A program made the position numbers and the translations under genes. Below the pieces are notes generated by a model, which did not search any database, was not told the origin of the DNA, and worked only from the letters and a program-made list of their open reading frames with translations. From Octopus vulgaris (lineage: Eukaryota), in the NCBI GenBank assembly GCA_951406725.2, contig OX597823.1, positions 25,668,001-25,732,000 of the forward strand: a stretch of 64,000 nucleotides of DNA, given 5' to 3'. This document shows, piece after piece, positions 1-45,064 of the stretch (position 1 is its first letter; each line of letters opens with the position of its first letter).

Positions 1-2669
1 AGCTGCGGGAAGTTGCGCCTCACAAACGGCGCCCACACCTGTTCACCGTCGTCGATGAATTTCCAGAGATGTCGCAGTCTCAGCGCATGCCTGCGCATCA
101 TCAACCACGGCATGCCCAGTCCTCCATTCAACGGATGTTGACAGCAAATGGACTTCCTCACCATCGGAACGCCACCCTTCCACAGGAAGCGGAAGAGTAT
201 GCGTTCCAGTTTGGTGATGGTGGCGTCGGTACAAGGTACGACGGTCAGGCGGTAATCGATGACGGATGCGATGTACGCGTTCGCCACCTCCGCCCGGCCT
301 TTTAGAGACAGCTTTCTCTCGGCCCATGTTTGGCTGAGAGCGACCACTCTACTCGTGATCTCGTCCCAGTTCTTATCCATTTGGAGGTCCGGACTGAACC
401 AGACCCCGAGCAATTTAACCTGTCCGTCCGTCCAGCGTCCCACTACTGAGCCGCAGTCGGACGGCATGGGCTTGCTTCTCCAGGTGCCGAGTAGCAAACC
501 CACTGACTTTTCCGGGTTAATCTTTGCTCCCGTCACCGTTTCGTATTTTCTTAGTGTCTCGCCGACCAGCTCGATGTGCTCGTAGCTCGACACTATGACG
601 GTGACATCGTCCGCATATGCCGACACGCTCGTCCCGCAACCCAGTTCCCGTGGGATGCCCCTCAGTGTCGCCAGCTTCCGCAGTAGCGGCTCGAGAGTCA
701 ATACATACAGAAGCGCCGACAGGGGACACCCCTGACGGACAGAACGCGTGATGTCAAACGGTTTAGACAGGTGACCGTTCACCCGAATCACCGATCGGAT
801 GCCGCTATACAAGGCAGCGATCCAACCGCGGAAGACGGGACCGAAGCCAGCCGCCCTGAGGACGGCCGCCAAGTACCGATGGTCGACCCTATCGAAGGCT
901 TTAGACTGATCCAAATTTATCAGCGCCCCACCCATGCCAGGATGATTAACTACCCTGTCCACAATTTAGCGCATCAGATGGAGGTTGTCATGTATGGTTC
1001 TGCCCGGCACGGCGCATGTTTGCGCCCTGTCGACCAGTTTACCAATGACAAGCGCCAATCTCTCGGCTATTACTTTGGCCAAAATTTTCAAATCTGCGTT
1101 GAGCAGAGTGATGGGCCTGAAATTATCTATAAAATTCCCCTTGTTTGAGTCTTTCTTCAGCAACGTCACTGCACCTCGGCTCACGAAACCGGGGATTCTC
1201 CCGTTTTGTTGCCAGTTGCAGTAGACTGATGCCAAGAGGTCGCCAAACAAGTCTGGCATTCGACAATACAGCTCGTAGGGTAAACCATCCAATCCAGGCG
1301 ACTTATCCCTCGGGCAGCCCGCCATCGCATCCCACACGTCAGCGGCTGTGATGGGACTTTCACAACACTCCGCTTCTCTTGCCGAGAGCTGCGGCAGGTC
1401 GGTCAGGTAGGCACTGAAATCCATCCCTCGTTCCGACCCACCACTCGCACCAAACAGTCGAGCAAAGTGCTGTTGAAAGGCCTCACACATCCTTTCGGGT
1501 TCGAGTAAACTGCATCCCTGTTGATCTATTAGAGACCGAATGGTTGATCTGTTGCCACGCTGCGCCTCCGCTACCCGGGCCTCTCGCGCAGCTTCAATCC
1601 CTTCGTTCCTTAAGGCACGCATTTTAGCTCTGACGACGCAACCTTCGTGCTTGGCGTTGAGGTGTTGGTCGAGGGCCATCCTCGCAGCCAGCACGTTGGT
1701 TGCGCTGCCAGTGGTAAGTGCCTCTTCTAGTTTCTTAACTAAGTCTCCCTCTACTCTATTTCGTTCTATCGCTAATTCCTTGCTAAACCTAATTGATTCC
1801 GATTTTATTGCCATTTTCAGGGCGTACCACCAGCGGTTGTTAACGACCGCTCCCGTCAGCGCCCTCTTAATTAACTCGCTAATCCGGTTCCTGTAAACCT
1901 GTCGCGCTAACAGCGACGTGTTCAGTTTCCAGTAACCGGGACCCTGCCTATGTGTTTTATCTAAGTCGAGCGTACACGTAACAAATTTGTGATCTGTGTA
2001 GCTGACTATTTTAAATTGTGGACATCCTACACTATCCCTATCCGCTGTCCTGCATAGAATTCTATCTAGATAAGATCTCGACGATCCGACGCGGTTTGTC
2101 CAAGTCCACGTTGGCACGTTCGGATGGTCGAGTCGGAACCTGTCAGACAAATGGAAACGTCTGAGCAGGTCTTTGAGGCTCTTACACCCCCTTCTATTCC
2201 TATCCCTTCCCACATAATCTAGATGCGTGTCCAAGGTAGCGTTCCAATCCCCTACTAACAGTAAAGGTCTAGACGTACCCAGGAAAACCTCTAGACGTCT
2301 GAAGAAATCCGCCCGACCCGTTAAGGACGGTGCATAAACTGCCATCAGACGGAATGCACACCCATTTCTGCCATCCACGTCCAAGACAACCAGCCTACCC
2401 TCCGGGTCTAGGAATATTGCTCTTACTTTTACATTTAGACTCTTTCGAAAAAGCACTGCAGTACCTCCACCACCCATGTTCGGCAGACAGGGAGAAAAAT
2501 AAATGTCAAATTGATTGCCAAACATGGACTCGAGGGCCCGCGGCTTACTGAGTCTGGTTTCGCTGATAGCTACTATATCCACGTCCAGTGACTTGATGTC
2601 GTTTAGAAGGTAACCTTGCTTCCAAGCCGACGCCAAGCCACGCGCATTCACACAACCTAATTTAAGCAT
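1..2669 (-). pseudogene. Copy A ORF2: apurinic-like endonuclease plus reverse transcriptase, with one in-frame stop at 966-968
   Basis: NARGL, SETRL, GDWNA and YTDH endonuclease motifs; SPGLDGLP, FRPITLLN, LDQSKAFD, RQGCPLS and YADD RT motifs. TAC in copy E is TAA here, and the frame continues past it. Confidence 0.9.
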
Positions 2670-2735
2670 ACTTTACATTTACGAAAATTGTGTTTTACAC
2701 ACTATATTAGAAGAGACAAGAGGCAAGAAGTGAGG

Positions 2736-4508
2736 TCACTTACTCATTTTAAAAGTTTCATTTTTTTCTTCTTCTTCTTTTGTATCGTTTTTGATGAGGT
2801 GTTTGTATAGTTTTTTCGACAGGTATCGTTGATACCCGCCTACCGCATTCGGAAACAATGTTTTCAGTATGTGGTGTTGTGCTTGTGTTATGTGTAAAAT
2901 TCTGATGTGTTTCGGTGGTGTGGTGTGCGGATGATTGTTTGTCTTAAAGTCATCTTCACAGACGACCATGTTAGATTTGATGTAGTCCATTAATTCTTTA
3001 TTGTCTGTGTCTATTGCAGTTAGTTGTGTGTGTGGTTTTACGGGTTCATTACTTTTTTGATTGTCTAGGGGAATGTTGTCCTGAGTTAGATATCTCCCTG
3101 CTTTAATTCCTTGTTTGGTGGATTTTTTGGATCTTTTTCTTTTACCCCCTGTGGATATTTGCCATTCCGTCGAACTTTCCTCGTCCGACGTATCAGTATG
3201 GGGTAGAGGCAAAACATTTGCATTACTATGTATGCTTGTATAAATTGTTGATGTTTTGTGCGGTGTTTGTGTTGTTGTGGTTTTAGGGGTAGCATTTGTC
3301 TTCTCGTCAGTGTTTTCTGTCTTTTTAATTGTCCTCCTGGGTGTGGGCGTGGGTCTATTTTTTGTTAATTCAACAGGTTTAATTGGTTGTGAAGTCAACG
3401 GTGATTGTGTTGGTACTGTTTTTCTTGGTGATGTTGTTGGGGTTTGTTTGCTGGTTTGTTGTTTTTCTTGGCGTTGTTCCATAATTGAGTGTGTTGGTGT
3501 TGGTGTTGGCAACAAAGGGATTTTATTTGTTTTCTGAATTGTTCTTTCTTGTTTTTTCTGTACCAGATCGCACTTGGCAATCAAATGTTCGGGGCTGCCA
3601 CATTTGTAGCATCTAGGCTTTTTGCCTTCTGCCATAACATATAGGCATTGCCCATTCTCCAAGTATATCTTGTCGGGTAGGCTCTCGATAGAGGCCCCCT
3701 CAATCTGGATGGTCACTACTACTGTTTTTCCACCCCAATTGTCGTTTAGGTACACGGCTGTTTCTAGAATATTGATCTTTTTCAAGTGGTAACAGATTGC
3801 CCCTGTTATCCATTTGTTCGGCATATCGGGGGGTACATTTCTGATAGTAATTCTACTCACCCTCTGGTTTTTATAATAAGGGACCATGATGATTTCATCA
3901 TTTCCCAGAGACTCAGTAGAGTGAGCTTTTGCCACTTCCTGGTTAGGGAAGCGGACCACTACTGTGTTAAACTGGGGACCCCAGTTTATATACTCTTTTT
4001 CTTTCATTATGTTTTTTAAACATTTCTCCACATCAGTTTTTGTAATCTGTTCATTTGGTTTTTTGTTTTTTCTAATAATTTTATATACAATTGTCTTATT
4101 TTCTATTTCTTGTTTTATATGTTGAGGTGTATGCAGGACTAAATCTTGTCCACGGGTTGTAAAGAGAGCTCTTGTTTCTATGAGCTCTTCATTTGTGAAT
4201 GTAACAATCTCCTTTTTCTGGCGAAGAATATCTGCGAAATTTACTGTTGTTGACTTTTTTGTATTGGCATCTTCACTATTAGATAGTTCATTTTTATTGT
4301 TGTTCTTGTTGTTGCTGTTGTTTTTGTCAATAGTTTTCGTTTCAGTTTTATTTTTATCATTTATGTTGGTCGTGGTAGTGGTGGTGGTGGTGGTGGAGGT
4401 GGTGGTGGTAGCAGTTGTTGTCTCGTGGTTGCTGTTGTTAGTGGTGGTGGTGGTGGTGGTGGTGGCGGTGGTGACAGGGCTGTTAACGCACGTGGTTGCA
4501 GCGTTCAT
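2736..4508 (-). CDS. Copy A ORF1 (590 aa): nucleic-acid-binding protein with CCHC zinc knuckle and T/N-rich low-complexity N-terminus
   Basis: Uninterrupted ORF; CYKCGSPEHLIAKC = C-x2-C-x4-H-x4-C; lies directly upstream of ORF2. Confidence 0.88.
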   Translation of the reverse strand: MNAATTCVNSPVTTATTTTTTTTNNSNHETTTATTTTSTTTTTTTTTNINDKNKTETKTIDKNNSNNKNNNKNELSNSEDANTKKSTTVNFADILRQKKEIVTFTNEELIETRALFTTRGQDLVLHTPQHIKQEIENKTIVYKIIRKNKKPNEQITKTDVEKCLKNIMKEKEYINWGPQFNTVVVRFPNQEVAKAHSTESLGNDEIIMVPYYKNQRVSRITIRNVPPDMPNKWITGAICYHLKKINILETAVYLNDNWGGKTVVVTIQIEGASIESLPDKIYLENGQCLYVMAEGKKPRCYKCGSPEHLIAKCDLVQKKQERTIQKTNKIPLLPTPTPTHSIMEQRQEKQQTSKQTPTTSPRKTVPTQSPLTSQPIKPVELTKNRPTPTPRRTIKKTENTDEKTNATPKTTTTQTPHKTSTIYTSIHSNANVLPLPHTDTSDEESSTEWQISTGGKRKRSKKSTKQGIKAGRYLTQDNIPLDNQKSNEPVKPHTQLTAIDTDNKELMDYIKSNMVVCEDDFKTNNHPHTTPPKHIRILHITQAQHHILKTLFPNAVGGYQRYLSKKLYKHLIKNDTKEEEEKNETFKMSK

Positions 4509-4832
4509 CTCACCGAATTTTACGTTGGCATTTTCCGTGCGAACGTTCTTTTTTTCTCTGTCGTTTCCAGACTAGGAAATGTTGTTCCATAAAAGAACGC
4601 GACCAGCGTTCAACAATAAAATTTCTAGACATTTTCTAATGTCGAGAAGAAAATAATAGAAATGAAATGGGGTCGAAACTGCCCCTAGGGGCGAATTCCT
4701 CCCTTGGAAAAGCACTCAAATGAAAGTTGGTTGCCTTACACACCTTATTTGCAAAAATCTACACAAAAATTGGCCTATAAATAGTCGAAATAAATGATTA
4801 CCTTCGGAGCTGAAACGACATCACATCCGTCA

Positions 4833-4895
<63 letters not shown>
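4833..4895. repeat. (GATA)n tract between copies A and B
   Basis: Perfect tetranucleotide run. Confidence 0.98.
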
Positions 4896-4896
<1 letters not shown>

Positions 4897-5209
4897 CTTT
4901 CTTTTATTAGCCACACAGGGCTGAATACAGAGGGGACAAATACAAATGCAGAGCTTTTCTTTTCGAGGGTGGAAAAAAATAAAAAATGTAAGATTGTGAT
5001 CAAAAGGGATCGAGAGGAGGAAAAAAAAAAAAAAAAAAAAGGAAAAAAAGAAAATCGTGTATCACAGAAATAATGGTGTAAACATTGATATAACAAGATT
5101 GGGTTCATCCGTGGGAAGAAAAGCCTACAGAAAAGACCACGGGAACCCCAGTCAGGGAGGAAATAAACACATGAGGTCAAAAATGCTCTCTTTCTTTCTT
5201 TTTTACGAT

Positions 5210-8200
5210 CTACAGGATCATGCTCAAAATGGTTTCGTTACTAGCACGCACCATCTTTGCAACATTCACCCATCTTTTTTTGAATCTTTCGCGAGACAAA
5301 ACTTCCCTCTCCATTCTCACCTTCCTTTTCAAGTGATACTTGAAAAAGTTGATGAGCGATTGGCCAGAGAGGTAAGCGTTTGTCTCTAATCCTTTCGCTC
5401 GAGTCCACCACACACATTCTTTCACCATGGCCACCAGTACGATGAAAACTGCCTTGCCTTCCCGGTTGAGGGAAGGGGGCGGAGCAATTCTCACGATAGA
5501 CTCGGCCGATAGGCGGATTCGTCCCACACGTGACAGCAGCCGTTCGGCATAAGCCCACAGGTCGGAAATGGTTGGACATTGCACGAGTGCGTGCAGAACG
5601 GTTTCGTCGCTCTGACCGCATCTCGGGCAAGTCGGTCCAGTGTGTCTGGAACCGTGTCTGTAGAGCTTATCCCGAACAGGTAATGCTTCTCGATAGCACT
5701 GCCAGGCCAGGGATCTTTGGTGATTGTTCATAGGTCCCGGCCCGAAAGTTGTCCTGAACAGGCGGGTCAGGTGTTCCTCGTCGACGCCCAGACTCTGCCC
5801 GAGTTCGTCGTCGCACCTCCCCTCCACTAATCCTCTATAGAATGCCTTTGTTGTGATGGAGTCGCACAAGTTCGATCCCGGACGGCAGAGTTGCTTGAGA
5901 GCAACGCGACACTCGCGGTGCCATTCGCCTAGCCTCGGTCTCTGCTTGATCCATGACTGTAGTTCGTCCAAGGAGACGAGCTGCGGGAAAGCGCGCCGCA
6001 CAAAAGGCGACCACCGTTGTCTATGAAGCGCCGGAGATGTCGCAGTCTCAGCGCATGTCTGCGCATCATCAAACACGGCATGCCCAGCCCTCCATTTAGC
6101 GGGTGTTGGCAGCAAATGGATCGCCTAACCATCGGAACGTTTCCCTTCCACAAGAAGCGGAAGAGTATGCGTTCCAGTTTGGTGATGGTAGGGTCGGGAC
6201 AAGGCACGACGGTCAGACGATACTCGATGACGGATGCGATGTACGCGTTCGCCACCTCCGCCCGACCTTTTAGGGATAGCTTTCTCTCAGTCCATTTCTG
6301 GGTGAGAGTAGCCACCCTAGTCGTTATCTCGCCCCAGTTCTTCTCCATTTGGAGGTCCGGACCGAACCAGACCCCGAGCAATTTAACCGGTCCGTCCGTC
6401 CAGCGTCCCACGATGGAGACGCTGTTGGACGGCATGGGCTTGCTTCTCCAGGTGCCGAGCCGCAAGCCCACTGACTTTTCCCGGTTAATTTTTGCTCCCG
6501 TTACCGCTTCGTATTCTTTCAGTGTCTCGCCGACCAGCTCGATGTGCTCGTAGCTCGACACTATGACGGTGACGTCATCCGCGTATGCAGACACGCTCCT
6601 CCCGCATCCCAGCTCTCGTGGGATGCCCCTCAGCGTCGCCAGTTTCCGCAGTAGTGGCTCAAGAGTCAGTACATACAGCAGCGATGAGAGGGCGCATCCC
6701 TGACGAACCGAACGCATGATGTTAAAAGGTCTGGATAGATGACCATTTACGCGAACTACTGAGCGGATGCCGCTGTATAAGGCAGCGATCCAACCGCGGA
6801 AAACTGGACCGAAACCAGCCGCTTTGAGGACAGCCTCCAAGTAGTGATGGTCTACCCAATCGAAGGCTTTTGATTGATCCAAATTGATCAGCGCCCCACC
6901 CATGTCAGGATTTTTAACTACCTTGTCTATGATGTAGCGCATCAGATGGAGGTTGTCATGAATACTTCTACCCGGCACGGCGCATGTTTGCGCCTTGTCG
7001 ATTAGTTTCTTGATGACAAGCGCCAACCTCTCGGCTAACACCTTGGCCAAAATTTTCAAATCTGCGTTGAGCAGAGTGATGGGCCTGAAATTATCTATGA
7101 CGTCCCCCTTGTTTGGGTCTTTCTTGATCAGTGCCACTGCTCCTCGCTTTACAAAAGCAGGAATACTCCCGTTCTGCTGCCAGTTGCAGTAGACAGCTGC
7201 CAAGACGCCTCCAAACAAGTCTGGCATATGAAAATAAAATTCGTAGGGCAGACCATCCAAGCCTGGTGACTTGTCTCTCGCGCAGCCTACCATCGCATCC
7301 TGTACATCCGCAGCTGTGATAGGCTTTTCACAAGACTCCACCTCCCTTGCTGAGAGTCGTGGCAAGGCATGCAGGTAGGCACTAAAGTCCACTCTGCTTT
7401 CTGACTCACCACTTGTCCCAAACAGTTGGGTGAAGTGTTGTTGAAAAACCCCACACATCCTTTTAGGCTCGAGCAATTCGCGCCCCTGTTCATCTATAAG
7501 AGACTTGATGGTGGCTCTGTTGCCTCGTTGCGTCTCCACCACTCGGGCCTCTTGGGCGGCTCCAACTCCTTCGTTCCTCAGAGCACGCATCCTAGCTCTG
7601 ACAACGCATCCCTCGTGTTTGGCGTTGAGGTGTTGGTCGAGGGCCAATCTCGCCGCCAGTACGTTGGACGCGATGCCAGTTCTAAGTGCCTCTTCTAAAA
7701 CCTTAACTAATTCTCCCTCTATTCTATTTCGGTCTAATGCTAGGGCTCTACTGTATCTGACTGATTCTGCTTTAATCGCTTTTTTAGGGCATACCACCAT
7801 CTGTTGTTGATGATGGTACCCGTCAAAGCTCTCTTAACTAATGTGCTGATCCGGTCCCTGTAAACCTGTCGTGCTGTAAAAGACGCGTTCAGTTTCCAGT
7901 AACCAGGACCCTGCCTATGTGTCTTATCTAAGTCAAGTGTACAAGTCACAAACTTGTGATCTGTGTAACTGACTATATGAAATTGTGGACAACCTACACT
8001 ATTTTTATCTATTGTCCTACAGAATACTCTATCTAAGTATTATCTGGACGACCCGATGCGGTTACTCCATGTCCACATTGGCACATTCGGGTGGTCCAGT
8101 CGGTACCTGTCAGACAGTTGGAAACGTCTGAGCAGGTCTTTGAGGCATTTGCATCCCCTTCTATTGCTATCTCTGCCCACGTAGTCTAGATGCGTGTCCA

Positions 8201-8636
8201 GGGTGGCATTCCAATCCCCCACTAAAAGTAAAGGACGAGACGTTCCCATGAAAGACTCTAGACGTCGAAAGAAATCTGGTCGGCCTGTTAAGGACGGAGC
8301 ATAAACTGCTATCAGTCGAAAAGCACACTCATTGCTGCCATCGACATCCAAAACGACCAGCCTACCCTCCGGGTCTAGGAAATTTGCTCTTACTTTGAGA
8401 TCCAGACTCTTCCGGATAAGCACCGCGGTGCCACCTCCGCTCATTCTCGGTAGACACGGAGAAAAATAAATGTTGAAATGTGTACCGAAAATGTGCTGGA
8501 GTGCCCGCAAGCTGTGGAGTCTGGTCTCACTGATGGCTATGATATTCAGATTTAGTGACTTGATGTCATTTAACAGGTAGCCTTGTTTCCAAGGCGACCC
8601 CAAGCCACGTACATTTATACTACCTATTCTGAGCAT
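5210..8636 (-). pseudogene. Copy B ORF2 (APE endonuclease, RT, C-terminal zinc finger); stop at 8040 and frameshifts near 7790 and 6015
   Basis: ORF pieces 8040-8654, 7740-7949, 5929-7800 and 5210-6115; YADD; CPRC...H...C motif; 10-nt deletion relative to copy D near 6015. Confidence 0.9.
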
Positions 8637-10795: not shown

Positions 10796-11012
10796 TTTGG
10801 AAATAAAATGGCTAAATGAAACCACGAAGGCTATGAGAATTTTTTCTTTTAAATTTTGCCCACAAGGGGCAAAATTTTGTGTCGATATTTATCAAAGGTT
10901 TACAGTGGATGTTGTTGCACAACTTTTAAGCACAAAATGTTTGTCAATATACACTTTTAAATAGTCAAAATAAATGATTACCTTCGGAGCTGAAACGACA
11001 TCACATCCGTCA

Positions 11013-11027
11013 ATAGAGAGATAGATA
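11013..11027. repeat. Short imperfect (GATA)n tract between copies B and C
   Basis: atagagagatagata. Confidence 0.85.
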
Positions 11028-11920
11028 TGTTTCTTTATTAGCCACACAGGGCTGCACACAGATAGAACAAATTACAAGGTAGAGCTTTTCTTTTGAAGGT
11101 TTAAAAAAAAAAAAAATAATAATAATAATAATAATAATAAAATAAAAAATAAAATCAAAAGGGATCGTAAAAGGAGAGAAAGAGGACAAAAAAGGGGGGG
11201 TTAAAAAAAAAGGGGGAGGAAAAAAAATTGATCAATAGGGATCGTTATCACAGAAATGTCAATATGAAGTGTAAAGGGGAGGACAGGTGAGGTTTACCCG
11301 TGGAAAGAAAAGCCTACGGAAAAGACCACGGTAACCTCAGTCAATGAAGTCACATGTTATATTTCTTTTTTTTTTTTTTGCAAATAAGCAACTCTCTGTA
11401 TTAATTTTTACGGTTCATAGAATCATAGTCAAGGTGGCTTCGTCATTCATACGTGCCATCCTTGCTACATTCACCCATCTTTTTTTAAAACATTCACTAG
11501 ACAAAACTTGCCTCTCTACTCTCACTTTTTTCTTCAAGTGATACTTGAAGAAGTTGATGAGAGATTGACCAGAGAGGAAAGTGTTTGTCTCTAATCCTTT
11601 CAGACGCGTCCACCAGATACATTCTTTCGCCATAGCCACAAGTATGATAAAAATAGCTCTTCCTTCCCGTTTGAAGGAAGGAGGCGTGACGATATTAACG
11701 ATAGACTCGGCGGATAAACCGACACGTCCCACACGTGACAGCAGTCGTTCGACATAAGCCCACAGGTGGGAAATTGCTGGACACTGCACGATTGCGTGCA
11801 GAGCGGTTTCGTCGCTCTGCCCGCATCTCGGGCAGGTCGGCCCCGTGTTTCTCGAGCCATGCCTATAGAGCTTATCCCGAACGGGTAGCGCTTCTCGGTA
11901 GCACCGCCAGGCCAGGGATC
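11028..11920 (-). mobile_element. Tx1-clade copy C, 5'-truncated (ORF2 C-terminus plus 3' UTR), third subfamily
   Basis: ORF 11415-11789 homologous to the B/D C-terminus; conserved 3' terminal motif GCCCTGTGTGGCTAATAAA. Confidence 0.9.
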
Positions 11921-11993: not shown

Positions 11994-13360
<1,367 letters not shown>

Positions 13361-13525
13361 CTTTTTATTATAGCCACACAGGGCTAAACACAGAATAAAA
13401 ATGGACGAAATACAATGTAGAATTTTTTCTTTTCGAGGTGGTTTGGGTGGGGCAAGAAAAAAAAAAAAAAAAAAAAAACGTTTGATCAATAGGGATCTGT
13501 GGGTTGTGTGGTGTATAAAAAAGCA

Positions 13526-13556
<31 letters not shown>

Positions 13557-13672
13557 TCACAGTTTAGGTGTAGCCTTGGAAAGAAAAACCTACAAAAAAG
13601 ACCAAGGTCACCTCAGACAGTTCGAAAATGAACACATGAGTAAGTCGCCTTACTTCTCGTTGTCTCTTTTGG

Positions 13673-18904: not shown

Positions 18905-19225
18905 TACACCACGTCATTCAGGTTTGCACTTTGCGTGCATAAGTTCTTTTTTTGTCCTAGCGTTTCCAATCTAGGAAAATGCTGGTCCATAAAGGAACCA
19001 GCGTTCTACAATAACATTTCTCGACATTTTTTAATGTCGAGAAGAAAAATACACAAATTAAATAGGGTTGAAACTGCCCCTAGAGGCGAATTCCTCCCTT
19101 GGAAAAGCACTCAAACGAAAGTTGGGTGCCTTACATACCTTATTTACAAAAATGTACACAAAATATGGGCTATAAATAGTCAAAATAAACGATTACCTTC
19201 GGAGCCGAGGTTGACAACACGTCCG

Positions 19226-19299: not shown

Positions 19300-19935
<636 letters not shown>

Positions 19936-26207: not shown

Positions 26208-27660
26208 ATGTCAGCTACCTACGCATCGAAACTGAGATCTGCAAGTAGGGCTTCTCATCAAGATGATGGTCCTACCAACAGTCAACTCAACGAACAGTTG
26301 CTGTTGCTCAAACAAGAGGTTGAGCACCTAAAGTCTGTTGTTGCTCTCTTACTGAATAAACAGTCTCCTGTTGACGCAGAGTCACCCTTGATTTCTTCCC
26401 TGGAGACGTCCAAACCGAAGAGAACAAAATCGAGGCGGCCAAAGAAGGCGAAGGAACCGGCAGTCGTTTCTGCACATGATCGTTCCCGTGCGGATTCTTC
26501 CTCATCTGCCTTTTCGGTCCCGGAGGTTCCCCAACCTAATTTGAGGAGCGTAGACTCAAACCCACTTGAAGACCGTTGTTCTCCCCAAATGAAGAAACGT
26601 CGTCAAAACTCCAGTGGGGCGGATTTAGCTATGAAACCTGACCACGATAAACGGTCTCCTGTTGACGCAGAGTCACCCTTGATTTCTTCCCTGGAGACGT
26701 CCAAACCGAAGGGAACAAAATCGAAGCGACCAAAGAAGGCGAAGGAACCGGCGGTCGTTCCTGCACATGATCGTTCCTGTGCGGATTCTTCCTCATCTGC
26801 CTTTTCGGTCCCGGAGGTTCCCCAACCTAGTTCGAGGAGCGTAGACTCAAACCCACCTGAAGACCGTTGTTCTCCCCAAAAGAAGAAACGTAGTCAAAAC
26901 TCCAGAGGGGCAGATTTGGCTATGAAACCTGATCACGATAAAATCTGTTTGGATTCTCCTTCACTTGTCCTTCCCATTAATGCCATTGCTCAACCAATTC
27001 TGAACGATCTCGATGTGGGTTCATCTGGGGAGTGGTGCTCCCCAAACCGAAGAAGAGGCAGTGCAGTTCCAAACCACGCGGGAAAATTATGACCACTAAA
27101 TCCATTCCGATCGACCCCACAGGCCGACATAAGTCCGATGGCTATGAAACCACTCTTTCGAAATCCTCCAACGAAGAATCGAATACCGCAGCTCATAGTA
27201 GAGAACTTTTTGCCCACTCAAGATCGGCAATAATATATGGCAAAGCGGAATCCACCTGTGATACAGGCATAAACCGCCTAAAAGATGACATTAATTTTGT
27301 TTCCATTTTGGTTGGAAAATTGTTCTCTGTGAACGAAAATGTCAGTGTTCTTAAGGTCGCTCGGCTAGGAAGATTCCAAGCGAACCCAACCGCAGATACT
27401 AGACCACGCCCAATAAGGGTAATCTTTTCTTCTGATCGGGAGGCTTCAGTCTTTCTGAACAGAGCTCAGACGCATGCCTGGGAGGACCCCAATATGGGTT
27501 TTCGCGAGGAATACTCACTAAGAGAGAGAATTCGCCGGAGGAACCTGATATCCGAGCTAAAGATGAGGAAATAAATGGGAGAGAAGGGTTTACGAATCCA
27601 AGATGGACAGATAATCAAGTCCTACCTCTGGTCCCATGCTGTAGTGCTGACAGGGAAAGT
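26208..27660 (+). pseudogene. CR1-type ORF1 with a 97-aa internal tandem duplication, a frameshift near 27090 and a stop at 27572
   Basis: ORFs 26208-27092 and 27032-27574; the RLGR...RPRPIRV motif is typical of CR1/L2 ORF1; short coiled-coil-like N-terminus. Confidence 0.7.
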
Positions 27661-27663
27661 GAT

Positions 27664-30552
27664 GTGAGGGCAAATCGAAGTGAAGTTGATACCCCCGTCA
27701 ACGATGCTATCTCTGATGCCCTTTATTCTGCTTGTTCCCCAACTCCCGCCCCTCAGACTTCACAGCTCAGCATCGTCTACACCAACTCGTGCTCCTTATT
27801 CCCAAAGTTCAGTGAACTATTTACACTGACCCTACGCGACTCCCCTGATGTGATAGCTATCACCGAGACTTGGCTGACTCCAGCAGTAAAGGACTCAGGA
27901 ATCCACCTGCAGGGCTACGTCCTTTTCAGATGTGACAGAGGAAAAAGGCGAGGTGGTGGTGTTGCTGTGTATGTTAAGTCTGAGCACAAACCGTCCTGCG
28001 GTATTCTACCCACAAATGCTCAACCTACAACCAAATTCGATGCCGTCTATTGCAAGCTGAGCCTATCTGAGTTTTGCCTGCCCGTGTTGGCTGTCTACAG
28101 GCCGCCTCTAGCCGACCCCCAGGACGATGCTCATCTACTCGAGGCGATAAGATTCGTTTCAGCTTCGCATGACTGCTTGGTACTAGGCGACTTCAACGCT
28201 CCCATGATCGATTGGCCCGCATCAATTTGTACAACATCTTCCCGGTTCGGCCAGGCCCTTCTTGACGTGGCTGAAGATTGTTTTCTATCGCAACATGTTG
28301 AATATCCGACAAGGCATCGGTCTGGGCAGCAGCCATCTATGCTAGATCTGGTATTCTCCCGCTATCCAAGATCAGTGTCAGACGTATCTGTGTGCGCCCC
28401 TCTTGCCAAGAATGATCATGCGGTCCTGAAGTTCGTCATGCACACAACTTTTTCCACGCCCACGATTACTTCGCTGCCACGTAGAGTTTTCTCTGCAATT
28501 AATCTTGAAATTCTAACCGAGGCTTCCGCGCTTCTGGACTGGCGTTCCCTGATGACGTTGTCCTCAGTTGACGAACTATGGTCATCCCTCAAAGCATATG
28601 TAATCTGTTTGACTGACCAGGCAGTTCCCGTTGGACTTCCCAAGAGGAAGAAACACAAGCCCTGGGTGACGAAGAAGGTTAAACGAGAACGTCGACTCAG
28701 AGATATTGCTTGGGCTGAATTCAAAAATCTGGATTCGACTGCAGCTTTTGAGGTGTACAAAACTCAACGAGACCGAGCCGTGAAAATTGAAAAGAAAGAA
28801 CGCTTCAGTTATGAATACAAAATCGCGGCAAATGCCAGTAGCAATCCAAAAACCTTCTTTGCCCATGTCCAGCGGAATTCCCGCTTGAACAACCAGATTG
28901 TAACATTGGTAGACTCAACAGGCGTATCGATTGAGGACCCTTATCAACAGAGTCAATTATTTGCCGAGGCTTTTTCAACTATTTTCAAACAAGATGATGG
29001 TCGTGAACCCCCTCCATTTGATAGATCGGTACCTCCAATGCTTCGATTGATCATCACGCGGGACCAAGTCAAACGTGTTATTCAAGGCCTCGATGTCAAC
29101 AAGGGTCACGGCCCTGACGGCATACACCCACGGGTTATCAAAGCGTTGGCTCCGGTCATCTGCGAGCCCTTAACACGACTATTCAATATGTCATTGGCGA
29201 CGGGTGTTATACCTGCAGACTGGAGAACAGCGATAATCTGCCCAATTTTCAAGAAAGGGAGCCACGAAGACCCGCTTAACTACCGACCGGTTTCCCTTAC
29301 ATCAATAATCAGCAAGATGTTCGAAACCATCCTTAAGAAAAGTATGATGCTCCACCTCCTAAGCACAGCCTCGATCACTGATTCCCAACACGGCTTCGTG
29401 CCGAAGAGATCATGCTTGACCAACTTACTAGTAATGGAAGAATTGGTGACGCGCATCCTCGATGATAGTGATGCTGTTGACATCGTTTTATTGGACTTTG
29501 CCAAAGCTTTTGACTCGGTAAACCACCGCCTACTACTTGTCAAGCTTCAAGCATATAGTTTCCACCCGGATATTGTACGATGGGTTAGTGCCTTCCTCTC
29601 AGATCGCTCCTTCCAAGTTCAAGTTAATGGTTCGCGGTCCGACGTCTCCAGTGCGAGCAGTGGCGTGCCTCAAGGTTCAGTGCTTGGGCCCTTGTTGTTC
29701 TTAGTCTTCATAAATGACTTGCCCGACGACCTCACGCAACACACCCTTCTATTTGCCGACGATATCAAACTGGTCGCTCCTCGCGGTAGTATAGAGGATC
29801 TTCGTCGATGCCTCCACCAAATTTGGAAGTGGTCTAACGATTGGGACCTGTGTCTGAACGTGTCAAAGTGCTGTCATCTGCCTGTCGGCTCTACTCCTGC
29901 AACTCAACTTGATTTCGAGCCGGGTCGTCTGCTGCTGGAGAGGACCGATCAGGTAAAGGACCTGGGTATCTTGGTGGATTCCTCCTTTTCGCCTTCGGCC
30001 CAGTGCGTCCATGCTGCCAACAAAGCGCGCGGAATTCTGTTTTTGATTCGACGGTCATTCGGAATGCTCACAGCAGCCATATTCCTGCCACTCTATGTCA
30101 CGCTGGTGAGACCCATATTGGAGTATGGGATTCAAGCCTCTTCTCCTTATCTCCTCAAAGACATACAGCACCTCGAAAGAGTCCAGAGGCTGGCTACCCG
30201 CCTGGTTCATGGTCTCAAAAATTTGTCCTACGAAGAAAGGCTGAGGACGCTCGACCTTTATTCTCTTGAAAAACGCCGCCGCCGTGGTGATCTCTTTCTC
30301 GCCCACAACATCATAAGCGGGAAGTGTAACCTCTCGAAAGAGCTGTTCTTCACTCCTGCTCCGGAGCGTCGGCTGCGGGGTCATTCCGAAAAGCTCTACC
30401 TGCGACGATTTCATCTCAATCGAAGGAGAGGAGCTTTCTCCGTCCGGGTTGCGGATCCGTGGAACAAGCTGCCAGATGAGATGGTGAAGATGCCAACGAC
30501 CGCTTTGTTCAAAGCCTCCCTGGACCTCAAGTGGCCTGAACTCTTTACATGA
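27664..30552 (+). CDS. CR1-type ORF2, endonuclease-reverse transcriptase (962 aa, uninterrupted)
   Basis: ITETWL, GDFNAP, NDH, GPDGIHP, NYRPVSLTS, LDFAKAFDSV, GVPQGSVLGP, FADD, LRGH and WNKLP motifs. The true start codon is uncertain. Confidence 0.93.
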   Translation: MRANRSEVDTPVNDAISDALYSACSPTPAPQTSQLSIVYTNSCSLFPKFSELFTLTLRDSPDVIAITETWLTPAVKDSGIHLQGYVLFRCDRGKRRGGGVAVYVKSEHKPSCGILPTNAQPTTKFDAVYCKLSLSEFCLPVLAVYRPPLADPQDDAHLLEAIRFVSASHDCLVLGDFNAPMIDWPASICTTSSRFGQALLDVAEDCFLSQHVEYPTRHRSGQQPSMLDLVFSRYPRSVSDVSVCAPLAKNDHAVLKFVMHTTFSTPTITSLPRRVFSAINLEILTEASALLDWRSLMTLSSVDELWSSLKAYVICLTDQAVPVGLPKRKKHKPWVTKKVKRERRLRDIAWAEFKNLDSTAAFEVYKTQRDRAVKIEKKERFSYEYKIAANASSNPKTFFAHVQRNSRLNNQIVTLVDSTGVSIEDPYQQSQLFAEAFSTIFKQDDGREPPPFDRSVPPMLRLIITRDQVKRVIQGLDVNKGHGPDGIHPRVIKALAPVICEPLTRLFNMSLATGVIPADWRTAIICPIFKKGSHEDPLNYRPVSLTSIISKMFETILKKSMMLHLLSTASITDSQHGFVPKRSCLTNLLVMEELVTRILDDSDAVDIVLLDFAKAFDSVNHRLLLVKLQAYSFHPDIVRWVSAFLSDRSFQVQVNGSRSDVSSASSGVPQGSVLGPLLFLVFINDLPDDLTQHTLLFADDIKLVAPRGSIEDLRRCLHQIWKWSNDWDLCLNVSKCCHLPVGSTPATQLDFEPGRLLLERTDQVKDLGILVDSSFSPSAQCVHAANKARGILFLIRRSFGMLTAAIFLPLYVTLVRPILEYGIQASSPYLLKDIQHLERVQRLATRLVHGLKNLSYEERLRTLDLYSLEKRRRRGDLFLAHNIISGKCNLSKELFFTPAPERRLRGHSEKLYLRRFHLNRRRGAFSVRVADPWNKLPDEMVKMPTTALFKASLDLKWPELFT

Positions 30553-33827: not shown

Positions 33828-33989
33828 TACATACATACATACATACATACATACATACATACATACATACATACATACATACATACATACATACATACAT
33901 TGCTACGAGGGTAAAAGTGATGCCTTAGATAGAAACAACCACAAAGATATCAAACTGCTGGATCTGGTCATAAAAATTGCAGAGAGATA

Positions 33990-36326
33990 TTTGGCATGGG
34001 AGAGAGAAACGAGAGAGGAGAACGTTTGGCTACCATGGCAGAGGCGAGGCAGCTCTACATCGGAAACAGCCTATTCAGGAAGAGGGAGAGGAAGAGGTGG
34101 ACTTGGATATCGCCGAACTCTAAGCACCGAAGCGAGATCGACTACATCCTGGTTGATAAGCGACGCATATTGCATGACGTCTCCGCCGTGACGCCATTCA
34201 ACACCGGCAGCGATCATCGTCTGGTAAGGGCGAGGGTCGTCATCGACGAGAAGAGGGAGAAGATGGCGTTATATTTGGCGTCGAAAGGAAAACGTGTCCG
34301 AGTCTACAACGAAGCAAAGCTGCAGGAAGCCATCATGCAGGAAGACTGGTGCCAAGGAGACGACATAGACGATTACTACAACTCACTGATAGGGAAACTG
34401 AAGGAGTGTTTAAGGAAGGCTAAGGGTGTATGCCCAAGAGAAAAGAAGGGAAAAATCTCGGAAGAAACTACGAAGTTACTCGAGAAGAGGAAAAATATGA
34501 AGAGGACTATTGAAGATCACCTTGAATATTCCATTCTCAGCAGAGTGATTCGTCAGCAACTAAAGAAAGACTTTGAGGCATACCGGATGGAGAAGCTCTT
34601 GAAGGCCGCAGAGGAAAAGAAGAGCCTCAAGAAATGCAAGAGGGACATGGTACTATATAGATCGGAGGTGACGGCCCTGAAAAATACAGATGGAATATCG
34701 GTCAACGAGAAGAACGAGATGGAAAAAGTTTGTGAAGACTTCTACACCAAGCTCTTTAAGTCTACCAGAAATGTCCAGCCGTTACCACCACTCCAACAGG
34801 AAGAAAACGTGCCACCTATCCTTGTCAGTGAGGTTGAAAGAGCCATCGGCTCGATGAAAAACGGAAAGGCTCCAGGGAAAGACGGTATAACATCGGAGGT
34901 GCTAAAGTCAGGCAGAGAGCAGCTCTGGAAAATCCTCGCTGAGCGATTTACGCACTATCTAGACGAGGGAAGAATTCCCTCGCAGTGGAAAGAGTCAAAT
35001 ACCATCCTGCTGTATAAGAAGGGCGACAGAGAAGATCTAAAGAACTACCGACCCATATGCCTGCTGTCTCACGTGTGCAAGCTGTTCACGAATATAATTC
35101 TGAACAGGTTGTCACGTCGTCTCGACGAACAACAACCGAGGGAGCAAGCAGGTTTCCGGAAGAACTACAGCACAATGGACTATATATTTGCTCTAACGCA
35201 ACTGCTTGAGCGAGCAAATGAGTACAAGCTGCCTCTTTGCGTTGCGTTTATAGATTATGAGAAGGCCTTCGATAGCGTCGAAACCAACGCAGTGCTGAAC
35301 TAGCTGCAGAGGCAAAGAATCGAAGCGCAATATGTGCAGCTGCTCAGAGAGGCAAATTCCGGATGCACCACCGACATAGCTCTACTGTCATCACCCATAC
35401 GAGTGCCGGTCGAGAAGGGGGTGAAGCAAGGAGATACAATCTCCCCAAAACTTTTCACTGCATGTCTCGAACAGATCATCAGAGGCATCGAATGGCAAGG
35501 TGGTGTCAACATCAATGGCGAGCTCCTCACTCACCTCCGTTTCGCTGACGACATCGTACTCATCGCTGAAAACATGGATCAGCTTCAGACCGTGCTGACG
35601 GAGCTCGACATCAAAAGTTCTGCAGTAGGTCTCAAGATGAACCGCATGAAAACAAAGTTCATGCGGTCAGACAATGTACCAACAGGTCGAATGGTGATCG
35701 GCAGTGATGAAATAGAAGAGGTGAGAGAATATGTATACCTGGGACAGGAAGTAAATATTTGCCGGGATATCAAAAAGGAGATCTCACGGAGAGTAAGAGC
35801 CGGATGGAAGGCGTTCAATGGCATAAGGGATGTGCTCAAGGGAAGGTTGGACAGGACCACCCGCGCCAACCTCATTAACAGTGCAGTTCTGCCTGCAATG
35901 TTATATGGTAGTGAAACATGGGCTACCACAAAGAGAGAAGAGCAAAGACTGGTAACGGCTCAAAGAGCCATGGAAAGGTCAATGCTTGGTTTCTCGTTGA
36001 GAGAGCACATAAGTAGCAAGATCATCAGAAAGAAGTCCGGCGTGAGAGATGTCATCACAGAGTATACACGCAGCAAGTATAGATGGGCTGGACACGTCGC
36101 CCGGCTCACCGATAATCAGTGGACGCACGCAGTTGTCGAGTGGTACCCGCGTGAGCGGAAAAGACCACCCGGAAGACCTCCACGACGGTGGAGTGACGAT
36201 TTCAGGAGGACGATTGGGATCCCGTGGATGAGAAAGGCGCGATCCAGAGAGGAGTGGACAGCGTGCTGTGACCAGCGGTGTCAAATGGACGCCTGACGGA
36301 CTGGTCGGTCAAAGTGATCAAAGTGA
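33990..36326 (+). mobile_element. RTE-clade LINE, 5'-truncated, with a single in-frame stop at 35301
   Basis: Same-frame ORFs 33996-35303 and 35334-36296: IDYIL, GSDH, NYRPICLL, DYEKAFD, QGDTISP, FADD, WAGHVAR; tail (TCAAAGTGA)2 then (TA)n. Confidence 0.92.
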
Positions 36327-38922: not shown

Positions 38923-39659
38923 TATATTTATATATATTTTATATATATATATATATACATATATATATTTATATATATTTATATATATATATATATATAT
39001 ATACATATATATATTTATATATATTTATATATATATATATATATATATATAACATTTTAGGGTGGTATATATAAAATGCTGCGGAGCCACTGTTGAAACA
39101 AAATCCTTCGCACGAACTTATCATTATTATTATTTTTATTCCACGCAGAACCATAATTTCTTTCTTCAAAATCTTTTTATTTATATATTTTTCACTGTGT
39201 GAAGTTCAATTCTGTGTTAGAGTTTCAGTTTTATCAGACATTTTTTTCTTCTGCATTCTTTTTTTATATGTATTTTCCACTGTGTGTATATTACTTTTCC
39301 CTGTATGAAGTTCAAATCCCAACCTGGGATTTTTCACGTTTCTTCCACTGCGTGAGCTCCGAGTCCTCGTTGCCACTGATATGTCCCGCATTATAACGAC
39401 GTCCTTTCGTCGTCTGCCTGATTGGATCGTACAACTTCCCTCACTAACTGCGTTTCTTTTATTTGGCTACATGGGACCAACAAAGGGAGGACAAACAAGA
39501 CCAGACAATACATAAAAGGAGGGGGAGTCATGTCGGATGATTTACAATGATATGAATTTTAAAAATTTAAACATGATTTTAAAATTCTTATGTGATTTCA
39601 AGGATCCAGTTGACTACCGACGTCCGACGTGATACTTTTTGCTTTTCCCCTGGCTCTAC

Positions 39660-42600
39660 CTACCTGGTTCCATTCACGCACAGCATCCTTTCTACAGACT
39701 TCCATCTTCTTGCGTACATAGTGTGTGACATGTATCTCTTCTCCAGCCTGATCTTGCTCTTGAGGTGGTAGTTAAAAAAGTTAACCAACCCTTGGCCGGG
39801 GATGAAGGCATCTGTCGCTATCCCTCTTGCACGCGTCTTCCATACTGTCTCTTTTAGTATGGCTACCATGCAGAAAAAGAAGGCCTGCCTCTCCCTGTTA
39901 AGGGAGAGTAGGTAGCACAATCTTAATGATAGACTCAGCTGATAGCTGTACTCTTCCCATTTTCGATAACAGTTGTTCAGCAAAGTTTATCAGTTCCGTT
40001 AATTGCGTACACTGTACGAAGACGTGCGGGACAGTGACATGTCGGTGGGTCGGCACGACCGTGCCTCGATAACCTCTCTCGAACAGGTAAAACTGATCGA
40101 TAGCACAACCAACCCAGGGATTTCTGATAATTATCCAGATACTCTAGTCCAAAGATTCTCCTAAACAGGATGGTCACCTGATTTCAATCGACGCCCAGAG
40201 TCTCCCCTAGAACATCGTCTGATATAAACACTACCAGCTTGCTATAGAAATCCGCTGTGGAGCTCCTGCTGCCGGTATTGGCCACCCGAGAGAGCAGCCT
40301 GAGTGCCTGTCGACTGCCATTTGCCCTGCCTAGGTCTACGCTTGATCCATGAACCAATATCCTGTAGGGATGTCAATTGAGGGAAGAAAAACCGCACGTG
40401 CGGTGATCACACCTGCTCACCATCCAGGTAGAGCCAGAGGTGCTTAAGCCTTAGCGCGAACTTGCGCATTCTCAACTACGACATCCCTAGCCCACCCTTT
40501 AACGGTTTTGGCAGCAGACAGAGCGTCTTACAAGTGGTCCTCTTCTCTTCCACTAAAAGTGGAATAGAAGTCGTTCCAGCTTCTTCAGTCACAAATCGGG
40601 ACAAGGCACAACAGTCAAGCGGTAAGTGATAACAGAAGCTATAAGCATCTGTGCCATCTCCACCTTTCCTTGCAGAGATAACGCCATAACAGACCAGGTC
40701 CAGGTTAAGGCAGTTACCCTGCCTGTAACCTCGCTCCAATTCTTCTCTATCTGGAGTTCTGGACCGAACCAGAACTCTAGCATCTTAATCGAAACTTCCG
40801 TCTAACGTCCCATGACGTTATTGGGCAGCATCGACTTGCTCCTCCAGATGCTGAGTTGCAAGCCGGCTGACTTGTCCTGATTAATTACTACTCCTGCCAC
40901 CGCTTCGTATCCTTTGATGGCGTTTTCTACACTAGGTAGCAAACCTTGATCGGACACGATGATGGTGATGTCATCCGCGAACGGTAGCTGCTCCTCCGCC
41001 CCATAGATCATGCGAAACGCCCCCTCAGCCTCCATCCTTCGCAGAGATGTCTCAAGAGCCAGCATATACAAAAGTGGAGACAAGTGACATTCCTGGCGAA
41101 CTGGGCGCTCAATATTGAACGGTTTCGAGAAGAAACCGTTCACCCGGTCGACAGACTCGATGTTGCTGTACAAAGCAGCGATCCAGCCACGGAAAGTCGG
41201 GCCCTGCCCGGCCGCCCCGATATCCGCTGCCAGGTACCGATGGTCGACCCTATCAAATGCTTTAGACTGGTCTAAATGTACGAGTGCCAGAAAGTTTACC
41301 TACCCTCTCTAAGGAGTAGCATATGAGTTGAAGATTGTTGTGTATCGACCTGCCTGGGATTGCTCAAGTCTGACCTTCCCCAACAAGGCCTTCCACGATC
41401 TGCGTCAACCCCTTTGCTAGCATCGTGGCCAAAATCTTTAACTCTGAGTTTAGCAGAGTTATGGGCCTAAAGTTACTTACGATATCCTCCTTGCTCGGAT
41501 CCTTTCTGATCAGAGTCACTACCCCACGAATTGCAGCTTTGGGAATGCTGGCCAAATGTGTCCGAATAAGTCTGGTATGCTTTTATAAAACTCAGTGCAG
41601 ACCATCAAGTCCCGGCGATTTGTCCCTGGTGTACCCGGAGAGCACCTCGACAACCTCCGCAGCCGTGATCGGTCCTTCACAGCTCTCAGCTTCTCATGCC
41701 AAGAGACGCTGCCCCTCAGCTAGGAAGTCCCGAAGGGCCTCACCATGGTCCAGCGCACCGCCCCTCCAGAACAACTTAGCAAAGTGCTTGTAAAAAACCT
41801 CACACATCTCATCTTGTTCTTTGATCGAACGCCTTTGATCCTCAATCAAAGATCTAATCGTTGCATCATTGCCATATTGGGTTTCTACCGAGCGTGCCCA
41901 CCCGGTAACATTAATTCTTTCGCGGTTCACTGTACGAACTGCATTCCTCATGTTTGTCTCTGACGTAATGTCTAGGGCCATTCACGCTGCCAGAATTGGG
42001 GAAGCAGAGCTCAATCTCAACGCCTCTTCTAAGGTCTTAACTAAGTTGCCCCGTACTCTATCCCTATCTAAACTTAGCTGCTGGATAAATTTGATAGACT
42101 CAAATCGAATGGCTTTTTTGAGGGCAGACCACCACCTGTTATTCAACACGGCGCCGGTTAATGTTTTCATCACTAACTCCTTAATTCGAACAAAATAGAC
42201 TTATTTAGCGTCCAGTAGCCGGATCACCGTCTATGTGCTTTATCTATGTTCATCCTACACTTCACTAATTTGGGATCCGCGTAGGAGAACTGAACAAATT
42301 GTGGACATCTAAAACTAGCCTTATCTCTAGTTCGTACCACTATCCTATCTATATAAAACCTGAGCACGCCATCCAGGTCCGCACAGGGATGCTCGGGTGA
42401 TCAAGTCTATAACGATCCGCCAGCTGAAACACTCCTACCTGACGAGCCACCATTATCCAGACGTGCATCCAGAATAGCGTTGTAGTCTCTTAACACAACT
42501 AATGTCTTAAACATCACGAGAAAACCCTCGAGGCGCCGATAGAAATCAGTCTGTTTACTTTTTTACACCAGGTGCATATATTCCGACCAACCTGAAAGCT

Positions 42601-44995: not shown

Positions 44996-45064
44996 TACTT
45001 ATTAAGTCTGCCCACTATTAGTCGTGGACCAGCCCACTTCTCACCTGGGGGCGTCCACCTCAAC

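Follow-up and report, generated by a model that had tools for sequence, protein, structure and literature searches.

The 3′ untranslated regions (UTRs) of a LINE that inserts into (TATC)n repeats of the octopus genome share a hairpin and a distal purine tract. Judged by sequence comparison, the two constitute a real RNA element under selection, which most likely folds into a long-range pseudoknot of H-type containing a triple helix. We favour a role of this fold in target-primed reverse transcription (TPRT), as a family-specific platform for the reverse transcriptase (RT) that the element encodes, a reading to which we assign a probability of about 0.4, over ENE-like stabilisation of the RNA, a pseudoknot free of triplex, and explanations at the level of DNA or of primary sequence.

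The analyzed window, a stretch of 64,000 nucleotides, holds at 1-19.7 kb a head-to-tail array of minus-strand LINEs with (TATC)n between the units. Element A fills 1..4832 (minus strand); the 3′ UTR of this element (L041:9115-9177), immediately outside the window on the left, bears an E-type motif, the sixth copy. The (TATC)n target repeat at 4833..4895 (minus strand) separates it from element B, whose frameshifted ORF2 (5210..8636, minus strand) has its stop 72 nt before the GG that closes the hairpin loop. A domain search identified APE endonuclease, RT and zf-RVT domains in ORF2 and a weak zinc knuckle in ORF1, the zf-CCHC score of which falls just below the cut-off. An intact copy elsewhere in the genome encodes an ORF1 of 721 aa and an ORF2 of 1,145 aa, and ORF2 is open over ~1,150 aa in many copies; the LINE is apparently young and active. 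From all fetched loci 136 distinct LINE-type ends were pooled, a biased sample since many of them had been selected by the loop: a TATC-type repeat follows 126 of the 136, and a run of at least eight A directly after the element was found at none.

The traits of the Tx1 clade are present, namely a CCHC knuckle in ORF1, APE, RT and a C-terminal zinc motif in ORF2, and a target preference. Placed by domain layout and target preference, the host is an APE-type, Tx1-like, microsatellite-targeting LINE. Its nearest protein relatives (41-48% identity) are unnamed, the named ones are 28-33% identical and none of these is close; a pufferfish pol-like protein, 28% identical to ORF2, is one that we take to be a Tx1-type element. 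Two distant relatives on metagenome contigs (L057, L063) presumably end in or beside a putative U2 snRNA, a Keno-like targeting. Named precedents for microsatellite targeting are the Tx1 families Kibi, (TC)n, and Koshi, (TTC)n (PMC4494074), which are likewise APE-RT LINEs with a preference for a microsatellite; the target of the present LINE is in contrast (TATC)n, and the accessible text of that report mentions no 3′-UTR structure for Kibi or Koshi. The 5′ end of the element (window 4790-4832, 10970-11013, 19185-19225) is well kept between lineages and abuts the TATC repeat; the element is likely to have an internal promoter. Unrelated to the array ORF2 (21-25% identity) are two further APE/RT LINE ORFs, at 27436-30552 (plus strand; 1,038 aa, open) and 33933-36296 (plus strand).

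The five stems, 22-nt loops and tracts described in an earlier, sequence-only reading of the window are all where it had placed them, on the minus strand, although for copy B it had delimited the tract as 4954-4964, which spans only the A/G part of the full tract at 4948-4963. Following copy B along the RNA (all minus strand), the 5′ strand of stem 1 (5137..5148) comprises an outer GGGUUC (5148-5143) and an inner CCGUGG (5142-5137), and leads into the 22-nt loop UCUUUUC-U-GUAGG-CUUUUCUU-C (5136-5115). Within this loop, UCUUUUC (5130..5136) is the predicted Hoogsteen strand, matching AGAAAAG in parallel, and GUAGG-CUUUUCUU (5116..5128) is the 5′ strand of stem 2 and the Watson-Crick partner of the tract. 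The 3′ strand of stem 1 (5101..5114) reads CCACGG (5114-5109), AU and GAACCC (5106-5101), and is followed by a variable pyrimidine-rich spacer (4964..5100), looped out in the predicted fold, by the purine tract AAAAGAAAAG-C-U-CUGC (4948..4963; full tract AAAAGAAAAGCUCUGC), which forms the 3′ strand of stem 2, and by a terminal 51 nt (4897..4947) made of a U/C-rich hinge, the small hairpin AGCC-CUGUGU-GGCU and AAUAAAAGAAAG. The other copies, all on the minus strand, are C at 11079..11339 (hairpin 11288-11339, tract 11079-11094); D, of the same subfamily as B, at 12046..12238 (hairpin ~12188-12238, tract 12046-12061); E, of a third lineage, at 13417..13613 (hairpin 13566-13613, tract 13417-13433); and F, a 5′-truncated copy of C's lineage consisting of UTR only, at 19351..19700 (hairpin 19651-19700, tract 19351-19366). 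The spacers of all three lineages also contain one or two copies of the word GAUCCCU(A/U)UUGAUC (4990-5015, 11150-11250 and equivalents), which sits amid poly-pyrimidine runs, can form a 4-bp hairpin with a 6-nt loop, and is a possible candidate for a protein-binding site.

Genome-wide counts, made over the 2.8-Gb assembly that contains the window, gave 7,128 exact matches to a 23-nt loop pattern and 0 to the reversed control. Of 30 loci selected for the loop, 29 have the tract downstream, and among the 136 LINE-type ends the tract was present in all and the loop in 128, the other eight being 5′-truncated within the spacer. A scan rule, written after the motif had been seen, called for a stem of at least 6 bp, a mirror pyrimidine repeat of at least 6 in the loop and an exact downstream complement of at least 8. 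With 300 dinucleotide shuffles made per UTR for all five UTRs, none of the 1,500 satisfied the rule, and it found no other match in the window and none in 509 kb of control loci, both strands being scanned. Motif-bearing contigs occur in public sequencing runs of 11 studies and three organisms, a record of presence only, and viral contigs gave 0 motif matches. Rfam, for which the sequence-only reading had proposed a comparison with ENE models, yielded no ENE match and no other match at gathering level in window positions 1-21000 and seven further loci; over the same sequences relaxed thresholds returned simple-repeat noise only, with no ENE, MALAT1 or telomerase family.

All five UTRs carry the motif, as had been claimed, but they are not independent and represent three lineages only. 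When per-column majority codons for the last 150 aa of ORF2 were compared at fourfold-degenerate sites, six subfamilies fell into three lineages (B/D/H, C/F/G and E/A) that are 34-38% apart; C and F differ at 1 of 68 such sites. Across B, C and E, 18 of the 22 loop positions are invariant, compared with 23 of 48 fourfold sites (p=0.007), as are 10 of 12 inner-stem positions (p=0.03) and 6 of 7 Hoogsteen positions (p=0.07), these p-values being generous because the motif was picked for looking conserved. Flanking UTR positions are invariant at 4 of 11 and 3 of 10, and between-lineage identity is 42-58% of aligned columns for the spacer versus 80-94% for the motif. On these comparisons, purifying selection acts on the loop in the source elements.

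Pairing was examined in an alignment of 34 UTRs (four from the window and 30 others), drawn from 45 by leaving out truncated, deleted or mis-cut hairpins. Of its 849 pairing cells 95.6% are paired, compared with 44-58% when the partners are slid, and stem 2 cells are paired in 97.7%. Two-sided changes occur at five pairs: the outer stem has three, and the inner stem and stem 2 have one each (that of stem 2 being C-G to U-A, in E), so that the compensatory changes previously reported for the hairpin are borne out at 4 of the 12 stem-1 pairs. Three of the five belong to the E branch, and a count of five is also reached in 42 of 500 shuffles; the pairing changes therefore do not amount to formal covariation. 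By its four two-sided changes the hairpin is nevertheless well supported. The proposed Watson-Crick pairing of the tract with the loop, GUAG included, extends over 12-13 bp and is fairly well supported by one two-sided and two G-U-compatible changes.

The one-sided stem 2 changes that mark subfamilies are G-U in RNA sense (U-G in B, G-U in E) and mismatched on the other strand. This bears on the idea that the motif acts in DNA or antisense form, as H-DNA or as a purine-motif triplex in first-strand cDNA, or serves as a primary sequence for protein binding, the pairings being incidental. A homopyrimidine mirror repeat is a signature of H-DNA. The loop contains such a repeat and the hairpin scores better on the plus strand; the hairpin alone gave z -0.3 to -2.1 in sense, where its stability is nothing exceptional, and z -2.4 to -2.7 in antisense, which is neutral evidence at best. 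H-DNA, however, needs neither a flanking stem nor a distant tract, both of which are kept here with two-sided changes, and the stem 2 changes are wobble-compatible in the RNA sense only. We regard a DNA-level or sequence-only role as very unlikely.

In RNA form, the loop-tract duplex is calculated at -16.4 kcal/mol for copies B and C, -10.5 for E and -15.9 for F, and is stronger in all four than the best spacer competitor (-7.2, -6.3, -8.9 and -11.1 kcal/mol for B, C, E and F), although in E the margin over a local spacer hairpin is just 1.6 kcal/mol. Stem 2 very probably forms across the 130-290 nt spacer. The strand order S1-L1-S2-S1′-L3-S2′, both helices of which are supported by sequence, corresponds to an H-type pseudoknot. 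The top pair of stem 1 is G-C in all 34 aligned rows, whereas a C-type variant with G-G at this pair makes up 10 of 100 among the matches listed, so the top pair is dispensable for spreading. A third long-range helix, from the start of the UTR to the terminal hinge, was considered and rejected, being no better than shuffles in three of three subfamilies (465, 193 and 350 of 500). Stalling of the RT at the knot was likewise dismissed: in the 8 of 136 ends where the hairpin is missing, truncation points are spread over the spacer with no pile-up, in what is a small and biased sample. One copy (L173:1000-1195) has no Hoogsteen strand owing to a deletion between two CCGT words, which possibly arose by RT slippage at the structure.

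The parallel match of a third strand to the tract, as proposed earlier, is found in exact register over 6-7 positions: UCUUUU(C/U) runs parallel to AGAAAA(G/A), with C facing the sole internal G. In E all three strands are altered together, as the sequence-only reading had it; the change is concerted but constitutes one event, and the E tract usually has at least one extra base, often with a C-to-U change, the standard register from the A-run to CUAC being retained in 2 of 25 further E copies. It is because of this usual extra A that E rows are off register at the central G. The change in F was correctly described as limited to the Hoogsteen base, giving U.G-C, and is seen in 15 of 100 among the loop matches listed; it affects the distal triple of the predicted helix. 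U.G-C triples occur in yeast telomerase (PMC13541005), and in a telomerase-derived pseudoknot the distal triples are the least important (PMC2836554). With one concerted and one contrary change over three lineages, the label "covarying" was overstated for the third strand. A crude A-form cylinder, which reproduces a deep-groove crossing of ~10 Å, leaves 4-8 Å between the third strand's end and the first base of GUAG. One linker base could bridge this gap, and seven triples together with a GUAG/CU(A/G)C helix may be sterically feasible. The linker base between the third strand and GUAG varies freely.

Stem 1 and a Watson-Crick stem 2 could also form, as a plain pseudoknot or as alternative folds, with the 5′ pyrimidines serving merely as a linker or a protein-binding word. 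The evolution of the third strand is compatible with this, since one change is concerted and one contrary, its invariance alone reaches p=0.07, and all four pyrimidine combinations are seen at loop positions 7-8; sister elements of the L107-L112 type, moreover, appear to hold an ordinary long-range stem at a similar place. Such a fold leaves aside, however, that UCUUUU lies exactly parallel to AGAAAA, directly above stem 1 and with its C opposite the only G, that the full arrangement appeared in none of the 1,500 shuffles, and that the U.G-C triple has its counterpart in yeast telomerase (PMC13541005). We consider the pseudoknot without triplex quite unlikely, and think that UCUUUUY probably lies in the major groove of stem 2 and forms a triplex.

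In the platform reading, the hairpin and the distal purine tract would fold into an H-type pseudoknot with a pyrimidine-motif triple helix of 6-7 triples, in which UCUUUUY would occupy the major groove of stem 2 and one free pyrimidine would link it to GUAG. The fold would dock stem 1 beside the terminal module of hinge, hairpin and AAUAAAGAAA, where ORF2p might bind the knot or be positioned by it at the start of copying in TPRT, and would unwind it afterwards. Precedents come from several polymerases. Pseudoknots with U-A-U triples serve telomerase and alphavirus polymerases (PMC7583470, PMC9479738), and A-clade R2 proteins start TPRT by way of a 3′-UTR pseudoknot with base triples (PMC12222951, 10.1101/2024.11.11.623112). 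Once stem 1 is docked, the LINE would present a pseudoknot, hinge, stem and A-rich end in the arrangement to which these R2 proteins bind.

The telomerase RNA pseudoknots of human and Kluyveromyces lactis resemble the LINE motif in being of H-type, with loop 1 pyrimidines parallel to stem 2 purines, mixed U.A-U and C.G-C triples (one C.G-C and five U.A-U in K. lactis; PMC7583470, Table 1), a long intervening loop and a reverse transcriptase as partner. Unlike them, loop 1 of the LINE starts 1-2 bp above the helix junction, there is no Rfam sequence match, and the predicted structure resides in the 3′ UTR of an mRNA which, being copied in its turn, has to be unwound. The motif is no telomerase RNA, a non-coding RNA with a template that TERT binds, but part of the 3′ UTR of a two-ORF retrotransposon. 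A-clade R2 elements (R2Tg, R2Pm; PMC12222951, 10.1101/2024.11.11.623112) are also site-specific non-LTR elements, with a pseudoknot, hinge, terminal stem and A-rich end in this order. Their pseudoknot, however, is confined to the last 65-67 nt, holds three triples and binds an RLE-type protein (PMC12222951), whereas the LINE knot is long-range, with stem 1 130-290 nt upstream of the tract, has 6-7 consecutive predicted triples and belongs to an APE-type element. The alphavirus 3′ CSE (PMC9479738) is telomerase-like too, with U-A-U triples near the template 3′ end that the polymerase needs, but operates with a poly(A) tail and a viral RdRp.

The same knot and triplex might instead act in an ENE-like manner, as a protein-independent block to 3′-5′ decay or an aid to translation, in an RNA perhaps devoid of poly(A). 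MALAT1/MEN-beta and KSHV PAN ENEs likewise have two facing U-rich strands on a G-C-topped stem, and in most LINE copies G-C pairs adjoin the U-strands; as in MALAT1, a genomic A-rich tract with G and C interruptions is matched by the U-strands (PMC7583470). Plant and fungal transposon ENEs, too, lie in 3′ UTRs (PMC7583470, PMC12501189, PMC13541005), and in the plant LTR element Evade both the amount of RNA and mobility are increased by an ENE (PMC12501189). The lack of a run of at least eight A at all 136 insertions would fit as well. The topology, however, is that of telomerase: the analogy drawn earlier held for the H-type pseudoknot but not for an ENE, given a terminal loop of 22 nt that has neither an upper stem nor an internal loop (4/4 copies folded), a loop apex GUAG that pairs with the tract, and an internal tract with no blunt end, no poly(A) and no tRNA-like end. 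ARAGORN, which could miss an element of mascRNA size, found 0 tRNA-like genes in 1-21000 and hence no tRNA-like processing signal. The tract is internal to the element and ends ~51-52 nt before the TATC repeat; with ~51 nt of element 3′ of it, the knot cannot cap the 3′ end, and a nuclease halted there would leave a useless template deprived of the terminal insertion module. The 27 LINE-type ends discussed below were selected by their terminal motif and so cannot reveal RNAs that end at the tract. On balance, we find the ENE-like role somewhat unlikely and retain the platform for the RT as the favoured reading.

The last ~45 nt of the element, comprising the U/C-rich hinge, the small hairpin and AAUAAAGAAA, are common to older sister Tx1-like families and to a tRNA-type SINE. 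Matches to the terminal pattern number 118,591 in the genome, and of 100 listed, 73 belong to SINE tails, which lack the tract, and 27 to LINE ends, which have it. Read depth over the terminal bases was ~tenfold higher in four public runs. The SINE (L149-L171, L114) is present in ~10^5 copies, has a tail matching the last ~45 nt of the LINEs, and has a central part that we take to resemble the Nin/Deu domain; by sequence, its tail is borrowed from a Tx1-like element. A SINE often has its tail in common with the LINE that mobilises it (PMC4758252), so the separate terminal ~45 nt, and not the knot, are likely to be the ancestral signal recognised by the RT. TATC follows the SINE in 0 of 23 loci, and on the forward strand genome-wide TATC follows it 75 times and GATA 60 times (p=0.23), near the 0.2% background. 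As the SINE is not enriched at TATC, the terminal motif alone is insufficient for entry to the LINE's target, although exclusion of the SINE could equally reflect a cis preference or the need of a UAUC tail for primer pairing. Mobilisation of the SINE into TATC by the LINE was rejected: TATC lies on both sides in 7 of 8 loci, but the opposite-orientation control is about as common.

More speculatively, an APE-type animal LINE may have independently evolved a telomerase-like, long-range knot with a helix of 6-7 triples, required by its RT, as a password against a SINE of 100,000 copies that mimics its last 45 bases, which would make this the first long natural RNA triplex in L1/Tx1; we hold this combined proposal to be unlikely. 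It offers a testable idea of how a LINE keeps from mobilising a SINE with a copied tail. Among the full-text articles searched, none describes a pseudoknot or triple helix in the 3′ UTR of an L1/Tx1 element, or a (TATC)n-targeting Tx1 family. The transposon triplexes listed in the accessible parts of the 2020 and 2026 reviews are ENE-type internal loops gripping poly(A), none of them in a LINE; they come from plants, fungi, a slime mould and stickleback retroviruses. An octopus repeat annotation of 2026 (PMC13282606) lists recently active L1-Tx1 families, and the word "structure" does not occur in its main text. If the predicted fold is correct, an H-type version in a LINE would be a new architecture among transposon triple-helix elements and would link template handling in L1/Tx1 to the pseudoknots used by the RTs of R2 and telomerase. 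The motif, in two pieces of ~50 and 16 nt, is of a size that suits direct structure work.

Searches of the genome with C-terminal parts of outside relatives returned only the TATC clade (34-40%), and the hairpin was absent by rule scan and covariance model (best E=2.1) from 32 metagenome loci with 23-48% identity and from 20 sister-family loci. The sister families have the terminal motif and no knot, so the knot is not a general need of this RT lineage; as far as sampled, it is an addition specific to the TATC clade and, within the loci covered, at most family-specific. A decayed sister Tx1-like element, represented at window positions 39450-45000 (minus strand) and by L107-L112, has 36-60% amino acid identity depending on the segment, and the copy at 39450-45000 shows the same kind of terminal motif with no pyrimidine-loop hairpin. 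L107-L112-type sisters have an apparent long-range stem of their own (CAUGUCGGGYG / CAUCCGACAUG), and their 3′ flanks are mutually alike, suggesting another repeated target. In a further sister family (L115-L126), most 3′ ends run straight into the head of a different SINE-like repeat, a pattern by which this is a SINE-targeting Tx1-like family.
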